The notes beneath the pieces were generated by a model. It was not told the origin of the DNA and searched no databases. It saw only the letters and a program-made list of their open reading frames with translations. 64,000 bases of DNA from a virus (Duplodnaviria; Caudoviricetes): IMG/VR virus record IMGVR_UViG_3300025011_000016; one strand, written 5' to 3'. How positions within the stretch are numbered: the stretch's first letter is position 1; every line of letters starts with the position of its first letter. The position numbers and the translations under genes are program-made. Of this stretch, positions 7,304-55,000 are shown one piece after another.

Positions 7304-10300
7304 TGAGTTCATCGAAGAAATCCAATGGTATACCTGTTTCTGATGACATATCATCATCAAAATTTTCAACATAATTTTTTGGTGGAATTAACATATCACT
7401 ATGCTTCATTTCCCTACGAGCTTTTTGGATTTCTTCAATTAATTTTATATTATAATCGTCTTGAGTTTTAACACCAACATCTTTAAAATATCCCTTGCTA
7501 TCATCCGAGAGTTCTTCATATAGTTCATCATATGTTAACCCTTTATTACGTTTTTCTTCGTCGGGTATATCTCCCCTGACAAAACCGAATCTATGAAGAT
7601 TATTTCCATGATAGAATACATATAGAACTATTAGATATGACATTATTGAATCGTCATGAAAAGAAGTCCCTGCAGCTATTTTACCAGTTTTAGTTTTAAC
7701 TAGTCGTAATAGATCATCAATAATATTACAGGTAACAAATTTATCTTTAAATTCATTCACATGTCGTTCAAGTAAACTCCTGTCGTGTTAGTAGTATTCG
7801 TTAGATACCACGATAACTTAACCGTTTAGGTTCTTTGAACCGTCCGACCAACGGCGAAATCTTTATTTACGTTAGTTAATAAAGATAGTTTAAATGTATT
7901 ATAAATATTAATAGCCGCATTGTTATCTCTATCATCTATATGTCCACATTGTGGGCAATTAAAGACTCTTTGAGATAACTTCATTTTAGTTTTAACTTTA
8001 TGATTACAAACAGAGCATGTAATGGTACTATTCGGTTCTGCTAAAATATATTCACTACCATAAAAACGACATTTATATTTTAACACCTGCGTAAACGTAA
8101 AGGCTCCAACTCTATGAATACCCCTATTAATACGCTTAATACCATCAGACTCTGTTAATAAATCTTTAAAACTAAATTCATCAACTACTACGTTTCTATA
8201 GGTCTTGGCTAAGAATGTAGATACCTTCTGAATATAATCCATTCTAATATTCACTATTTTGGCGTGAATATCATTAAGCTTGGTTCTCGCTTTTATATAG
8301 TTCTTTGATGGATTACGTTTATCATATTTCTTCTTAGAAACTATTTCCGAAAGCTTATCAGTTTTCTTCTCTAGTTTCTTAATCTTCCCTTTCGGAAATT
8401 TAGGATTTATGATATCTTTTCCATCAAAACAAACTACTGGATTATGTATCCCTAGGTCTATACCTATAGTATTTTTCTCATGGTTATGACTTGGATTATC
8501 TATTTCATATGTGAATGATACATAATATTTAAAATTCTCCATACTAATACTCATTGTTTTCATCTCATGATGATATAAGAAGCTTATATCTTCATATGTT
8601 TTTAATTCCATATGCCCATATTCTCTATTAATAATAAAAGAGAATTTATTTTTATCGAGAATCTTAACAGCAGCTTGCTTAATATATATTCTAAAAGAAC
8701 CATTTCCATGAATCTTTCTTTTGAAATGTAGTTTACATCGCTGCTTATTTTTAATATCTTTAAAGAACTTATTAACGGCTAAGTTAACATCACTAACCGT
8801 TTCATTTTTTATAGACTTATTATATTCTCCAGTCCATTCAAATCCAGGTTCCTTTTCTTTCTTAGAATATATATGAGTAATAAAATCAAATTTATCAAAG
8901 AACTTCCTTAAATCTTTATCTACAATATTACCATTAAATTCTAGGATCTTATTAAAATACTCTAAAGTATTATTATATACAAATCGTCTATAACCAAAGC
9001 ATTTGTTTAAATATGTTACTTGTTCTTTAGTTGGTCGTATTCTTGTTTTAAAAGTCTTAATCAATTTTTATTCACCTCCTTTCTTATATTATTTGTTAAA
9101 GGTATAATATAATTGTATTAGGAATGAATTAGTAAGACTTACGGTTAAGTTATTCTCTAAGTTTCCTTAAAGCACAGACTATATCTTCACCCATTATAAT
9201 AATAATTATAATGGGGCCACCCATTTCGATTTAAGGGATTCTCACCCACTCACTTGAGCCCTACTCCTTTACGGATAGTCGTTGAACCTAAATCTATAAA
9301 TAGATCATTGGCTGCAGATTGTCCAATCTTAAACATTGTTACTTTGTTGTAGTTTAAGCACTAAGGAGTTTCCCGCAATTAAAGTAGTTTCAATTACATA
9401 TTACTATGCAACGTGACTCATACATGAATCATAACTTCTCTGGACTTATCTCCGGTCCAAACACCATATAGTTTTCGTCTAGCTGATTCTAATTTTAACA
9501 TACCTTCTGAGTCAAGTTTATCATCAAGTCCGGATGAAACAAGATCTTTATCATTATCAAAGTATAAATTAGAGCGTATATCTGTTAATTTTAAAGAATC
9601 CATTATGGCTTCACCATTAAAATTACGTTCTATACATAATATAGACTTAGGGATATGATGTTTGATAAGAGTAGTTATAAATTTAATAGTCTGAACTACA
9701 CCTATATATGGTGATTTAAATTCAGCAACAGGTTTTATAGTATATGGGTCAAATACCGTAACGGCAGTATTATCTTTACCATAACCATTAGAGGTATCAA
9801 CTCCAACGAAGTATATCCTATCTTTCTTCAAGGGTTCATATATATCTAATTTAAATAGTTTATTTATAAATATTTCTTCCTTAATTGGCTTCTTCATTTC
9901 TTCAATAGTGGCCAAATCTTCTGCGGGGAAAGGAGATTCGGATGAACCCCTCATTCTTTGAAGGAAGACCTCTCTTTTAATCTTTACTGGATTATTCAGT
10001 AAGATCTGACAGATACTTTTAAACCATATTTCATCTTTACCAAGTTGTTGATATTGGTATTCAATATAGACGATTCCACTTTCAGAATTAATTGCAATAT
10101 ATTCATCTAAATCTTCTTTAGTCCAATCATAAAACTTTTCAGTCCAACGACAAGTTGTAGCGATAATCTTTAATGCGTCCTGACCTGCTGAAGTATCTAA
10201 ATCTCCCGTTTATATTCATATGAATCGTTAATTCATATAGTCCATACGGACATCCCTAAGTTTCTTTAGGATACTAGACTATATCTTCATCTCTTAATAA

Positions 10301-23240: not shown

Positions 23241-23756
23241 TTAAAATTCTCCTTTGGATACTGAATCTATAGCTAATTTAGCTGTTGGATCAAAACAGCC
23301 ACTTGAATTACGCCATTCGTTGTGAGATAAAATAACATCGGCTTTGTTATAAATCCTATGTATTTCTTTCTTAGCCTTCTTTAATTTATTAGCATGATCA
23401 GTATGTGCCATTTTTCTAAGATGATTAATATGTTCTTGACTATACCCAGATTTTGTCAATTCATTAATTAAATAATTAATAAAGATATCACTATTAGTAG
23501 ATTTTTCACATTTCATTTGATGTTGTAAATTCTTTGTAAGATTAGTAATATATGTAACTTTTTCATTTCGTTTAGTTCTTAAAGTTCTAAGTAATACAAC
23601 GTCGGGTTCATTACTTTTTACATCATATAATATTATACTCTTTGTTAATTTTGCTATTTCAATATGTAATAAATTTTTCTCATCAGTTAATTGCTTTATT
23701 AGAATCTCATTCCTTGATATGTATCCCCCACACCCCGAACACCGATTTATGTCCAA
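23241..23756 (-). CDS. Hypothetical protein with N-terminal CxxC and coiled coil
   Basis: MDINRCSGCGG; GGGGTGG RBS. Confidence 0.55.
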   Translation of the reverse strand: MDINRCSGCGGYISRNEILIKQLTDEKNLLHIEIAKLTKSIILYDVKSNEPDVVLLRTLRTKRNEKVTYITNLTKNLQHQMKCEKSTNSDIFINYLINELTKSGYSQEHINHLRKMAHTDHANKLKKAKKEIHRIYNKADVILSHNEWRNSSGCFDPTAKLAIDSVSKGEF

Positions 23757-23854: not shown

Positions 23855-26676
23855 TTATGGTCTGGATTTAAAGAAAGAATCTATATAAGAAGCTTCTCTC
23901 TTTTTAAATGTTAATGGATTAATAAGTTGTCGTCCTAATGCCTGGAAGGATAAACCTATTAAGACAGAAGGATGTTTTTCTAATGCGGATTCAACAGTCA
24001 TTATTTGATACTCAGCTTTTTCACCATACTTACTGAAATCCGGTCTATATAAGATATCCTTACTGTGTCTTAATAGAGGGTGTATCAACAATTCACCATG
24101 AACCGCATCTGAATCAATTTTAGATTCGATTAATAGATCTAACATCTTTTGACATAACTCATCAACAGATCTACATCCAACATGATCACTTCTATTAAGT
24201 AAATACATGATGTTATAAAGAGGACGTGTCAATTCGTTATTCTCAATTTCTAATACGAATATCTTAGAATCATCATCAATTTTAGCAAAGTCAATTTCAT
24301 AAGCGTCTTTATGAGATTTACTCTTATTCATTAACTCAACTATATCTGGAGATATATATAAGTCTTTCTGATTCAATTCCATACATTCTATAATCTCACC
24401 AGATTTTTTATGTTTAACATGGAATATAGTTACAAATGTATTGAAATCAGTATCATCATATTCATTAATACTAATAATATTTTTATTAATAATAACTAAA
24501 GAATAATCATTTAAGTTAATGTCGTCATTAGTTATATTAAGAAGAATTTCATTTGCATTAATAGTGAAAAACTTATAGAAATCAGCATTGAATTCTATCT
24601 TTTCCGAAACTGTTGTTAGTAGGTGTTTAGTTGATAATACTCTCTGAGATACAGGTTCTGTTATTCTTGATCCAGCATATCCACCAATAGAGATACCTTT
24701 ATTGGTATGATATAGTTGCCCATAACAATGCCAACATATTCCATCTTTAGCTGAACAAGTTGCTGGAGATTTAACATAGATAGTTTTACCAACAATATTT
24801 TCCTCATGACCTTCAATGACGTTATAATCTCTAGTATTCTCAAGACGATAATATCTTCCCTGTAATCGTCTTAAATGCTCTTTAGTTTTGATTTCGTATT
24901 GAATTGAATGAATGCTATTACATGTTTTAACAGTAGGACTTAATTTTATTCCTGATGTTAAAAGCATTACTAATCGTGCAAACGTATTTTCATATAGATC
25001 GTAAATCCATACAGTTCTCTAATGAACTTCCCTATAACTATATAGGATACAAGACTATATCACCATCCAATGATGGATGATTCTTATTTCAGTTTAACTA
25101 TAAACTTACGAGCTTTTACTCTAGTCGTTGAACCTTTCTCTTAGTAAGAGTATTGGCTGCGGATCGTCCAATCTTCAATTAAGAAGTTCTAAGGAGTTCC
25201 CCGTCAATTAAAGAAATTTTCTCATTATATATTACTATATAATGCCACCTGTAATTGATGGCCAGATCTACCCATACGTAAGTTGACATTATTCGTTACA
25301 TAATGTAGTCCACAAAGAACTCCCTATATTTCTATAGGATACCAGACTATCTCTTCTCATTTAATTAAATGAGTCTCTCCATTTCGATTTAAGAGTTTTC
25401 ACACCCACTCACTTTGAGCTCTAAATTAGTCGTTGAACCTTTCTCTTATTATAAAGAGACTTGGCTGCGGATTATCCAATCTTAAACATTATTACATTAG
25501 TAGTTTAAGCAGTAAGGAACTTCCCGTCAATTAAAAGAGAAATGGCTAAAAATTAACCAGTTTATTCATAATTAATGATTTTCTTCCACCACGATACTTT
25601 CACATAGGTCGTTAATCCATGCAGTTCTCTTATGAACTTCCCTAATATTTATTAGGATACAAGACTATATCACAATCTTCTATATAGAAGATTCCATTAA
25701 TTTCGATATAACTTTATATCTACGAGTCACGCTCTAGTCGTTGAACCTTATTCTTATATAAGAATCTTGGCTGCGGATTGTCCAATCTTCAATTAGAAGT
25801 TCTAAGGAGTTTCCCGTCAATTAAAATAGTTTTACAACATAAGTCCACCTATGCCGCCCCAAGTTGTTTTAGGGAGTCAATATAGTAATTAGTGATGTTG
25901 GATAATCCCCCTACTATGAAGTTACTATTGATCGGATGGGGGATTGTATTTCCAGAAAGATCCGGCTTCAGCCCCCCACTAATTGCGAACTCTGCTAACT
26001 GTTTATGTTTAATCCCAGCACCAGATTTTAGTATTGGCTGTAGCATATTTCCAACAGGATCATTTTCTAAAATGGCAACTTGCTCATGCATTAGATCATC
26101 TAGTAATGATTCTATTTCCGTAGGTTGAAGTCCGTCTGGAATAACCGTTCGTATGATTTCGTTAAATCTAGGTATACGTTCGCTTACGTCAATAAACGTC
26201 TCAATATTAATTGATAACCCCAATATCATATTAAAGTCAGTTGATATTCTAGATAGATTGTGGATCATATCTGCAATTACTTTATTCATTTTAGTATTAC
26301 TGATAATCTTTCTAAATGGTAAAACTATCTTTCTATCAACATATGATTTGATATAATCTGCCGATATCTTACTACAATCAACTATATAAGATTCATTCAA
26401 TCTATCAATATAACCCAACTTCATCATCGGTGACCAAAACATATAATTTGTTAAGAAATGTCTTAATTGGAGAGTATGAATTTGTTCTCCTTCTTTATCT
26501 GAAAATTTAAAATACACTGGGCATGTTCTCAACTCCTTAACTTCAAACCCTCGTTTTAAATAATCATAGAACAACTCTAGATTAGCTTTGTAGTCCTTCT
26601 TAGTAGCCATTAAGTTTGAGATAATAAAGATCTTATTGGATAGCTCACTGATTATTTTTCCTACATCCGAATCCAA
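23855..26676 (-). CDS. Non-virion RNA polymerase beta' C-terminal subunit, four exons (26676..25871, 25591..25556, 25276..25258, 24982..23855), about 662 aa
   Basis: Spliced bridge helix YYIDSL|GGRKSLIMNKLV|MGRSGH|FARLVML; zinc motif CSAKDGICWHCYG; trigger loop AGSRITEPVSQRVLSTKH; region H IGLSFQALGRQL. Exon sum 1989 nt. Confidence 0.9.
24983..25257 (-). ncRNA. ORF-less group I intron (beta'C intron 3, 275 nt)
   Basis: P1 GCCAT/GTGGC; core motifs present; ends GAAAATACG. Confidence 0.9.
25277..25555 (-). ncRNA. ORF-less group I intron (beta'C intron 2, 279 nt)
   Basis: P1 TGGT/GCCA; core motifs present; ends CAACTTACG. Confidence 0.85.
25592..25870 (-). ncRNA. ORF-less group I intron (beta'C intron 1, 279 nt)
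   Basis: P1 CCCT/GGGG; core motifs present; ends GAAAGTATCG. Confidence 0.85.
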
Positions 26677-52020: not shown

Positions 52021-55000
52021 TTAATCATTTTCGAAACGTGTCATCATATATAGTGTATGAACACCCTCATTGGTTGTCTTTCTCATATTACTACCAGCGA
52101 TATTTAGAATATGAGCTTTAGATGTCATAATTTCAATAGCTTCTTTATTAGCTTCTTGACTAAATAAACCCTTTACTGTAACCTGATCCAAAATATTCAT
52201 ATAGATATTTAATCCATACAGTTCTCTTATGAACTTCCCTATATTAATATAGGATATTAGACTATCTCTTCAATAGAATAAATCTATTGTTTTCCCATTT
52301 CGATATATAACTATATCTACGAATTACTTCTAGTCGTTGAACCTTTCTCTTATATAAGAGACTTGGCTGCGGATTGTCCAATCTTCCATTAAAGAAGCTA
52401 TAAGGAGTTTCCCGACAGTTAAGGAAAATACGGCAATACAATGACCGTCGTACATGTAAACTCCATATTTTCATATGGCATGGACTATATCTTCACCGTA
52501 TAATAATAAATTATTAATTAGGTGTCCTGCACTTCCCAACTAACCCACAAATTAGTCAGTACACTACTAACTACTATATAATTATATGATAGTAATTTTC
52601 GTTAGTCTCTACATCTTCTCTAATTAATTTACATATTTTCACATATTGTAATTTTAACATGGGGGTTTTTATTTTGGGTGTATCATTTAGTTTAGACTCT
52701 ATTTTAATCAATATTTCATTACGGGAATTTTTATCACAATAGAATACAAAATATCCTTGAATAATACGTCCAAATCGAACCGCATGAGTTACAGAACTTT
52801 TATTACTATCTATTGAATCAGCAAATGACTTCGCTCCTTGGAATATATGAAATAACCCATCTTTAAATGCAATTATAGGTTTAGATTTATCTCGTTTAGT
52901 TTGTTCAGAATGTCTAAATAATTTTGTACTTTCACTCATCTTATATTTAGACTCACTATTCATAGTTCCACCGACCCCACCTGTTTTCTTATTATATCCA
53001 ATATTAGGATCATTTGCTTTTAAAGTTGATATCCAATATACCTCTTTTTCGTTCATTTCATTTTTAGAGGTGCATGTGTCTATTATACTGCAATCAAAAT
53101 TATTAAATCCATATTCATTAACTATTTTTATAATATGATATAAATTCGATTTCCTATTAAGCTTTTTATACTTATAATCCTTAAGTCGTGAATGTAGATT
53201 TATTGTCTGACCAATATAAATTTTACCATCTATATTATTTCTCAACATATATATTACACCAAAATGTTTTTTCGATTCAATTATTAGATCATCATTATAC
53301 ATAATAACCCCCCTTATTATATATAAGTTAGTATAAAAGTATTTTTTTACAATATATGAATTTCGTAAATCAATTAAAGCTTGACACGGTATTTCCAGCT
53401 ATCCATATTTCAGGACCTTAGGTTCTCTTACGAAGCTTATTCGTCAATGCTTATTTCACTTCTACCGTTAGCATGAGTATTGTGATACCCATACACCGCC
53501 TGTTAAGCGTTCACAGGATTTTTAACTAAGCTATTTCTAGCAAAGGGAGACAACAACTTTTATCTCCGTTTAAACCAGGTAGATATAAATTTGACATACT
53601 CACAGTATCTGCAAATAGAGTGGATATTTCTTCTTTAGGTAAACTAAGATCGATCCTAGGATAATTCGTATAGACTCTATTTCCAATAAACATCGGTATA
53701 GTTTGGTGGGTACTTAGGACTGATATTTTGTTAGGAAAGCTACTGAAATAATCTGAAATAGGATATCTCGTAACGAATACCATTTTATCTGATGTAACAT
53801 CAACTGCCGCTTGATATAAAATATCACACCAAGTTGCCTTCCTTTGTACTAAGGGAGATTCAGTTTCAGGAACCCCTGGTTTATAATCTTTTCCTATAAA
53901 TCGCATATATAATTTCTTCCCATCAGATCTAGGTTCCTCGACGGGAAGTTCAATTGGTGTAAATCTATCGGATACACTAAATATGAATCTATCAATTTGT
54001 TTTTTAAGATATTCTTCGTTGAAATATAATGAGGGATCTTTTAATTTCACATATCCCATGGAACCGTCCGGATTTCTTACAGGATACTTATTACCAACCT
54101 TCTCTAATTCTCTATGGAAGAAATTTTTAACCCAATTTATTATAAATGGTGTAAATAATGAACATGTTTGTGCAAGAGGAATACCAACATGATAAAAATC
54201 TATTTGCATCTCAGATGGTTTATTTGCTTTGAATATAGGTGCAGAAATTCGTTTATTCATATAGAATATAACTCTATACAGTTCTCTCATGAACTTCCCT
54301 AATTTTCATTAGGATACTAGACTATATCTTCAGGAAATTAAGAATTCCTGAACTCCCATTTCAATACAATAATGTATCTAACTCACGGTAAATTAATATA
54401 ACCATATTTCCGTGTGATAGTCGTTGAACCTTATTCTATTAGATAGAATCTTGGCTGCGGATTGTCCAAACTTAAACATTGTTACTTTAAGTGGTTTAAG
54501 TTCTAAGGAGATTCCCGACAATTAAGGAGCTACGTGCAGTAAATCCACACTCCTCGATCCGAAATCAACCGATTTACCCATTAAATTTTTTCTAATTAAT
54601 CCATTCTTCTTTTCTATTCTACCTTTGAGCAAATCATAAATTTCTACTAAGACTTCCTGAACCTTAGCCCTAGTTCCATTAAGTACAAAATCAAAATTAT
54701 TGGAGTTCCTCAACACAGTTGCGAATCTTAATAATTTAGCGTACTTATCATTGATCTCATGATGACTAATCTTACCCTGTGTTGCTGATTGTAAATTAAC
54801 ATCACGATAGAATGCTGGCACTACAATCCAGTACTCAGTAAATAAAGTATCTTTATCATACGATCTCAGCAAGTCAATTCTTTCACTACGTATAGAACTG
54901 GCATTCTTTTCAAAGTTTATTTTTTCCCAATTTTTATATAAGAATTCTAATCCAGTCTCACCAGATTCCTCAGCTTCAACCAATTGTCCATTTTTATCTA

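Follow-up and report, generated by a model that had tools for sequence, protein, structure and literature searches.

Gene layout at the locus

The DNA analysed here, referred to throughout as the window, comprises 64,000 nucleotides (nt) of the IMG/VR record IMGVR_UViG_3300025011_000016 (Duplodnaviria; Caudoviricetes), which derives from an uncultured AR9-like jumbo phage of groundwater with contigs of up to 272 kb. On its minus strand lies a gene whose predicted product is the C-terminal beta'-like subunit (beta'-C) of an AR9-like non-virion multisubunit RNA polymerase (RNAP). The gene is split into four exons by three group I introns, all of which fall inside 55 coding nt (Table 1). In what follows, L-numbers denote loci or contigs of relatives, P-numbers denote the homologous proteins used for comparison, and a caret marks a junction.

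Table 1. Exons and introns of the split beta'-C gene in window coordinates.
Feature	Position	Strand	Length	Phase	RF00028 score	Content
Exon 1	25871..26676	-				beta'-C gene, TTG start at 26676; taken from the list of open reading frames (ORFs)
Intron 1	25592..25870	-	279 nt	2	68.8 bits	group I, no ORF
Exon 2	25556..25591	-	36 nt			third base of Leu, GGRKSLIMNKL, first two bases of Val
Intron 2	25277..25555	-	279 nt	2	67.8 bits	group I, no ORF
Exon 3	25258..25276	-	19 nt			third base of Val, MGRSGH
Intron 3	24983..25257	-	275 nt	0	69.1 bits	group I, no ORF
Exon 4	23855..24982	-				FARLVMLL... to the stop at 23855-23857; rest of the bridge helix, Cys cluster, trigger-loop region

An earlier first-pass annotation, made from the letters of the DNA and its ORFs, had placed the three introns at 24983-25870 with the intron and short-exon lengths listed in Table 1, and locating the exons confirmed these values to the base. 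Exon 1 breaks off after CU, two bases into the Leu codon of ...YYIDSL, and its N-terminus agrees with the family consensus MxxxxxxIIxxLxN. Joining the four exons gave a single open frame of 662 codons from the TTG at 26676, which reads DSL^GGRKSLIMNKLV^MGRSGH^FARL across the junctions. This spliced product aligned with 25 uninterrupted homologues without any gap over the junctions (window, DSLGGRKSLIMNKLVMGRSGHFARL; nearest relative P0001, DSLGGRKSVIMNKKVMGHSGHFARM), and when exon 4 was used to look for longer homologues, over 200 uninterrupted proteins of ~660 amino acids (aa) were found, many of them encoded on contigs of 200-260 kb. Independent support for the junctions came from PHROG 3015, which was matched by exon 1 at profile positions 50-233 and by exon 4 at positions 253-650 (E 9e-42), leaving a gap of 19 positions that is the size of exons 2 and 3 together. 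Readings of the interruptions as an intein, a group II intron or a frameshift were set aside, as the Rfam matches described below and the exact reconstitution of the frame left no room for them.

Identity of the interrupted protein

A profile built from the homologues matched the AR9 non-virion RNAP chain 7S00_D with an E-value of 2.6e-93 over profile positions 127-658, and phiKZ gp74 (7OGP chain D) with an E-value of 1.5e-23; bacterial beta' subunits were also matched in the same search of PDB profiles. Homology to the solved non-virion enzymes thus extends over the whole subunit, as is expected of a beta'-C protein. The cultured homologues, which are found in AR9, PBS1, BpSp, phiR1-37 and Staphylococcus jumbo phages, were 26-30% identical and are encoded by genes in one piece, and the homologues of MarsHill and Madawaska carry the annotation of a non-viral RNAP beta' subunit. 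The exons gave no match in Pfam, whereas PHROGs and PDB profiles did match; a DNA search of cultured phages returned matches to the intron cores only and no close relative; and a single protein used as query against viral contigs found no relative, while an alignment used as query did.

The interrupted stretch lies opposite a motif of Bacillus subtilis beta' (6WVJ_D; aligned P0001 segment YYIDSLGGRKSVIMNKKVMGHSGHFARM) that I take, from established RNAP structures, to be the bridge helix. The alignment bore out the proposal of the first-pass annotation that the gene is a counterpart of RNAP beta' with its bridge helix interrupted, and it places the first half of the predicted bridge helix in exons 2 and 3.

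Three sibling ribozymes

All three introns matched the general group I model RF00028 over its full extent (positions 1-253) at E-values of ~1e-15, with scores of 67.8-69.1 bits against a gathering cut-off of 50 bits; the alignments to this model contained an insertion of 30-37 nt between P7 and P3', the place where introns of subgroup IA2, typical of phages, have additional P7.1/P7.2 helices. At each 5' splice site the exon end and an internal guide form a P1 helix with the U.G pair at the cleavage position (exon CCCU with guide GGGG for intron 1, UGGU with GCCA for intron 2, and GCCAU with GUGGC for intron 3), and each intron ends in a terminal G, as ...ACG or ...UCG, right before the following exon. 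Introns 1 and 3 were ~81% identical, and intron 2 was the most divergent at ~70% to each of them. The core strands were invariant among the three, while P1-P2 of introns 1 and 3 differed sharply.

An RNAalifold consensus of the three siblings recovered P3, P4-P6, P8, P9, P9.1 and P9.2, and pairing was kept through two-sided changes in 18 of 63 pairs (in P3, P6, P8 and P9-P9.2, from three sequences only). These compensated pairs indicate that each copy diverged without losing its fold, an argument against decay. Within cultured phages, the intron cores had blastn matches of 70-72% in Twort-like Staphylococcus phages. None of the three introns fully contains an ORF of at least 42 aa, and none was found to encode a homing endonuclease. 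The RF00028 scores, the identities and the ORF list are therefore in line with the earlier description of three sibling group I ribozymes lacking endonuclease genes, and I infer from family membership that all three are self-splicing.

A hotspot of insertion at the bridge helix of relatives

The gene was uninterrupted in 28 of 34 IMG/VR loci, and the remaining six (five of them distinct) carried insertions in or near the bridge helix. About 65 of 98 clusters of shorter homologues start within residues 274-311, which places their first residue in the bridge helix or right behind it. Within ~60 nt, relatives have six or more insertion sites, and sites 1 and 2 of the window are both reused exactly. 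Site 1 (CU^N in DSL^GG), which in the window holds intron 1, is occupied by a 325-nt ORF-less intron in L043 and by a 1174-nt intron with a NUMOD4 ORF in L045. Four bases downstream of it, at GGU^GGA, insertions are found in L049, with an HNH_3/NUMOD4 ORF, and in L050. Site 2 (GU^U in V^M), the place of window intron 2, holds a 540-nt intron in L047, where P1 shows a compensating change (exon CGU with guide GCG, versus GGU with GCC in the window). A further site, AUGGGU^, lies seven bases downstream of site 2 and is occupied in L017, L050, L051 and L052, in L043 by an intron with a NUMOD4 ORF, and in L028 by the first of two introns. The second intron of L028 carries an HNH_3 ORF and sits 2-3 nt before site 3; its junction can be placed in two ways, one giving a 10-nt exon and a 5' splice site that lacks the U, the other a 9-nt exon and an intron end that lacks the G. 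Further upstream, GGL^K is occupied in L016 and L043, with AP2-domain ORFs, and KQL^SEF in L050. This map comprises the junctions that are readable to the base, L032, L034 and the second intron of L028 being ambiguous.

The endonuclease domains HNH_3, NUMOD4 and AP2 thus sit in the long insertions of relatives, and tandem introns around tiny exons recur there as well (39 nt in L050, 43 nt in L043 and 9-10 nt in L028). Two of the relatives, L043 and L045, come from samples (JGI 3300025010 and ERZ28564033) that also yield contigs of the window phage. While the first-pass annotation had been right on the ribozymes, the junctions, the protein and the bridge helix, it had not noticed that the hotspot is common to many relatives; the mapping of intron presence and absence that it had put forward as a check found sites 1 and 2 occupied elsewhere, and site 3, which is taken up below, was not.

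In addition, ~20 homologue clusters (P0161-P0218) begin at residues ~400-415, at the sequence SQxILSxKHLLTT in the trigger-loop area (window ~24640-24690, minus strand). This suggests a second intron hotspot at residues 400-415 in relatives; exon 4 of the window is uninterrupted in this region.

Soundness of the assembly

The protein encoded by exon 4 was found on 19 contigs from groundwater metagenomes, up to 272 kb in length, and seven contigs that differ in sample and assembler, among them scaffolds of 240-272 kb, matched the window at 100% identity over a region of 1088 nt. Seven separately assembled, identical contigs argue against an assembly artefact, the objection that the first-pass annotation had raised against its own reading, and introns that are only 70-81% alike are not collapsed or duplicated reads; the arrangement seen in the window is well supported.

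In one contig of 2.4 kb (L042; positions 1-425), a beta-subunit-like exon runs out in ...GEMYVLKLNQTSKKGFSARSTGSLSKRGIP and is followed by the 5' part of its intron, to which the 3' part of window intron 2 is joined. A reading of this contig as a variant without intron 1 was rejected, as it is really a beta-gene intron joined to intron 2, with a beta exon that is absent from the window. It is either an assembly chimera across the common intron core or a real recombinant, and by its sequence the same intron family evidently also splits a beta-subunit gene outside the window. L051 and L052 each begin (positions 1-62) inside the 3' tail of the intron at the AUGGGU^ site. Assemblies tend to break at the repeated introns, so that counts of 'fragment' proteins partly reflect contig ends.

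Splicing fidelity and exon skipping

Skipping of short exons between group I introns has been described in several systems. In Staphylococcus phage Twort, orf142 (Landthaler & Shub 1999, as described in PMC10136302 and PMC11878797) contains three ORF-less group I introns, two highly similar ones of IA2 type flanking a 23-nt exon, with documented skipping, and in SIOphi an exon is skipped in ~47% of the polymerase transcripts (PMC11878797). In Coxiella burnetii 23S rRNA a 34-nt exon between tandem introns is skipped, and engineered tandem Tetrahymena introns also showed skipping, where differentiated splice-site recognition elements favoured exon inclusion (PMC10136302). The window shares with orf142 a single phage gene with three ORF-less group I introns, similar ones of which flank a very short exon. 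Unlike that tail-tube gene, the gene in the window has two short exons in a row, of 36 and 19 nt, set between three sibling introns, and it is interrupted at the RNAP bridge helix. With the Coxiella and Tetrahymena cases it shares group I introns around a very short exon, there of 24-34 nt, but those cases have no more than two introns each, in an rRNA gene and in an artificial reporter.

The Twort-type layout of similar introns around an exon of less than ~40 nt is present twice in the window, whose introns are 70-81% identical, and the mispairing or exon skipping between sibling introns that had been proposed is plausible, with the identical core strands in its favour. Skipping exon 2 is predicted to keep the frame and to yield a product of 650 aa that lacks GGRKSLIMNKLV, a loss of 12 residues, while skipping exon 3 or both short exons is predicted to lead to a stop after 3 codons. 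The guides GGGG, GCCA and GUGGC differ from one another, which matches the safeguard that favoured exon inclusion in the engineering study; distinct guides, and splicing that probably proceeds 5' to 3' during transcription, would keep skipping low. Cryptic matches to the guides occur as UGGU at 25588 for intron 2 and as GCCAU at 25542 for intron 3, and matches of 4-5 nt are expected by chance, so that they are no evidence on their own. The latter match lies in the guide strand of intron 2 itself, AGCCAU (25542-25547, minus strand), which holds the pentamer GCCAU that ends exon 3; it may be a potential cryptic 5' splice site for intron 3, or may be due to chance.

Origin of the cluster and alternative explanations

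It is very probable that three ORF-less group I introns of one family splice themselves from this transcript and rebuild the 662-codon frame, and that their cluster stems from a homing hotspot. Each intron would act as an independent ribozyme that chooses its own 5' splice site through a P1 of 4-6 bp with a U.G wobble, and the three self-splicing events would together restore one frame. The cluster would owe its existence to homing, for which this highly conserved stretch would be a hotspot in the phage clade; the introns of the window are most likely endonuclease-less descendants or copies of hotspot elements, gained by successive invasions. That sites 1 and 2 are common, to the base, to different phages fits homing. 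As a probable by-product, no endonuclease recognition site that spans the stretch would still be intact.

Three observations weigh against this account in one respect or another. Site 3 (CAU^UUU) was occupied in the window alone and in none of the relatives examined. In a small tree of the ribozyme cores, from which ORFs had been removed, introns clustered by genome more than by site, with support of 0.87 for window introns 1 and 3, 0.996 for three introns of L043/L045 and 0.98 for two introns of L050, and such genome-wise grouping is explained at least as well by within-genome spread or gene conversion as by independent homing. As for splicing, the P10 pairings look weak, so that the choice of 3' splice site may rest on the near-identical 3' tails, which would favour skipping.

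Spread within the genome, in which reverse splicing or ectopic homing placed copies of one resident intron at sites nearby, with later retargeting of P1-P2, is a possible explanation that I hold only tentatively. It would account for introns 1 and 3 being mutual nearest relatives (81%) in spite of their sharply different P1-P2, and for the introns of L043 and those of L050 likewise clustering by genome. On the other hand, in one alignment the similarity of intron 1 to the L043 intron at the same site (74%) was barely below that to intron 3 (76%), gene conversion between copies gives the same pattern, and the two sites held in common with other phages point to homing. Selection may also have acted on the occupied sites, whose destruction of targets for rival homing endonucleases, as proposed in the first-pass annotation, is plausible. 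An adaptive shield, in which the ORF-less introns are retained since they occupy or split the endonuclease sites of co-infecting relatives and so spare an essential gene from cleavage and marker exclusion, is conceivable although doubtful. At site 1 and at AUGGGU^, relatives from the same samples do have introns that carry endonuclease genes, the exon flanks of site 1 are ~86% identical between L045 and the window, which makes an empty site a plausible target, and PhiPA3 gp210 provides a precedent (PMC11620839); however, occupied sites arise from homing itself without any selection for protection, and beta'-C proteins that are only 58-64% identical may belong to phages that do not share a host. 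An extension of this idea, rather unlikely in my estimate, would see a battleground in which endonuclease introns invade at least six staggered sites and the genome has filled the stretch with three ribozymes, copied within the genome and swapped in P1-P2, as a defence against superinfection. If true, the polymerase gene would be immune to every endonuclease aimed at the bridge-helix stretch.

Programmed alternative splicing, in which the in-frame skip of exon 2 yields a regulatory subunit deficient in the bridge helix, is very unlikely. The 650-aa product would keep the frame, and skipping is known from the similar IA2 introns of Twort and from SIOphi, as set out above, but the short exons of relatives (39, 43 and 9-10 nt) are not consistently in frame, the residues lost are the most conserved in the protein, and the guides are differentiated. 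Most improbable of all is that the cluster is an artefact of assembly, or that the gene is dead with introns that no longer splice. Intron repeats do scramble assemblies, as the apparent chimera L042 and the intron-terminated L051 and L052 illustrate; against this stand the seven contigs identical over the region, the limited similarity of the intron copies, the exact in-frame conservation of the exons, and the ribozyme helices kept by compensatory changes.

Comparison with other phage introns

For the endonuclease question there is a precedent in PhiPA3 gp210. This HNH nuclease is encoded by an intron within an RNAP gene of a jumbo phage, disables the phiKZ allele that lacks the intron, and confers a competitive advantage (PMC11620839). 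Both systems comprise group I introns at a catalytically important, conserved site of a jumbo-phage RNAP, and relatives of the window have endonuclease versions; unlike the window with three introns that have no endonuclease, PhiPA3 has one intron with an HNH endonuclease, in the virion-RNAP beta gene of a chimallivirus. AR9-like jumbo phages (AR9/PBS1; MarsHill, Madawaska, Machias) have intron-split RNAP subunit genes (bioRxiv 10.1101/2020.12.14.422802) and share the polymerase family of the window. In the cultured AR9-like phages, however, the beta'-C gene is in one piece, and the multi-intron cluster at the bridge helix is found only in the uncultured clade. Jug phages, in the excerpted report PMC12880540, contain ~18.5 small group I introns per genome, and 37 of 76 predicted introns tested in three genomes were backed by metatranscriptome reads. 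As portrayed in that excerpt, they resemble the window phage in being huge and in having essential genes divided in two or three by numerous short group I introns that lack ORFs, and differ in lineage and habitat; the excerpt describes no bridge-helix cluster.

The three-intron cluster is thus a real but extreme local case of a known phage habit, located in an intron hotspot. What the present analysis adds is the site-by-site map of that hotspot, and the co-occurring relatives with and without endonucleases.

Neighbouring genes and other mobile elements

Elsewhere in the window, Rfam matched four further group I introns. An ORF with TnpB domains at 7829-9064 (OrfB_IS605, Cas12f1-like TNB and HTH_OrfB_IS605; window 7829-9437, minus strand) lies directly downstream of a group I intron core at 9155-9437, an IStron-like layout. 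A GIY-YIG endonuclease ORF at 52577-53302 (E 8e-12) adjoins a group I intron core at 52237-52453 (window 52237-53302, minus strand), and another intron, at 54297-54575, lies in the same run of ORF fragments as the GIY-YIG ORF.

Downstream of the polymerase gene, a small ORF (window 23241-23756, minus strand) encodes 171 aa in the window and in the other contigs. The same ORF encodes 196 aa in two contigs (L039:2836-3426) despite an identical intron region, which looks like strain-level variation. In one relative, the beta'-C gene is immediately preceded by three tRNA genes on its upstream side (L047:1679-1975).

Significance

In practice, introns of this kind leave metagenome assemblies broken and scrambled, and they cause gene callers to list the polymerase in pieces. 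The cluster is a natural case of three sibling ribozymes that would each have to find their own splice sites over exons of 36 and 19 nt, in a segment of protein that is intolerant of error. Relatives from the same aquifer, with and without endonucleases at the same or neighbouring sites, offer a ready test system, in which it may be asked how exon skipping is avoided, by what route introns reach new sites, and whether occupied sites give protection from rival endonucleases, as is the case for PhiPA3 and phiKZ.

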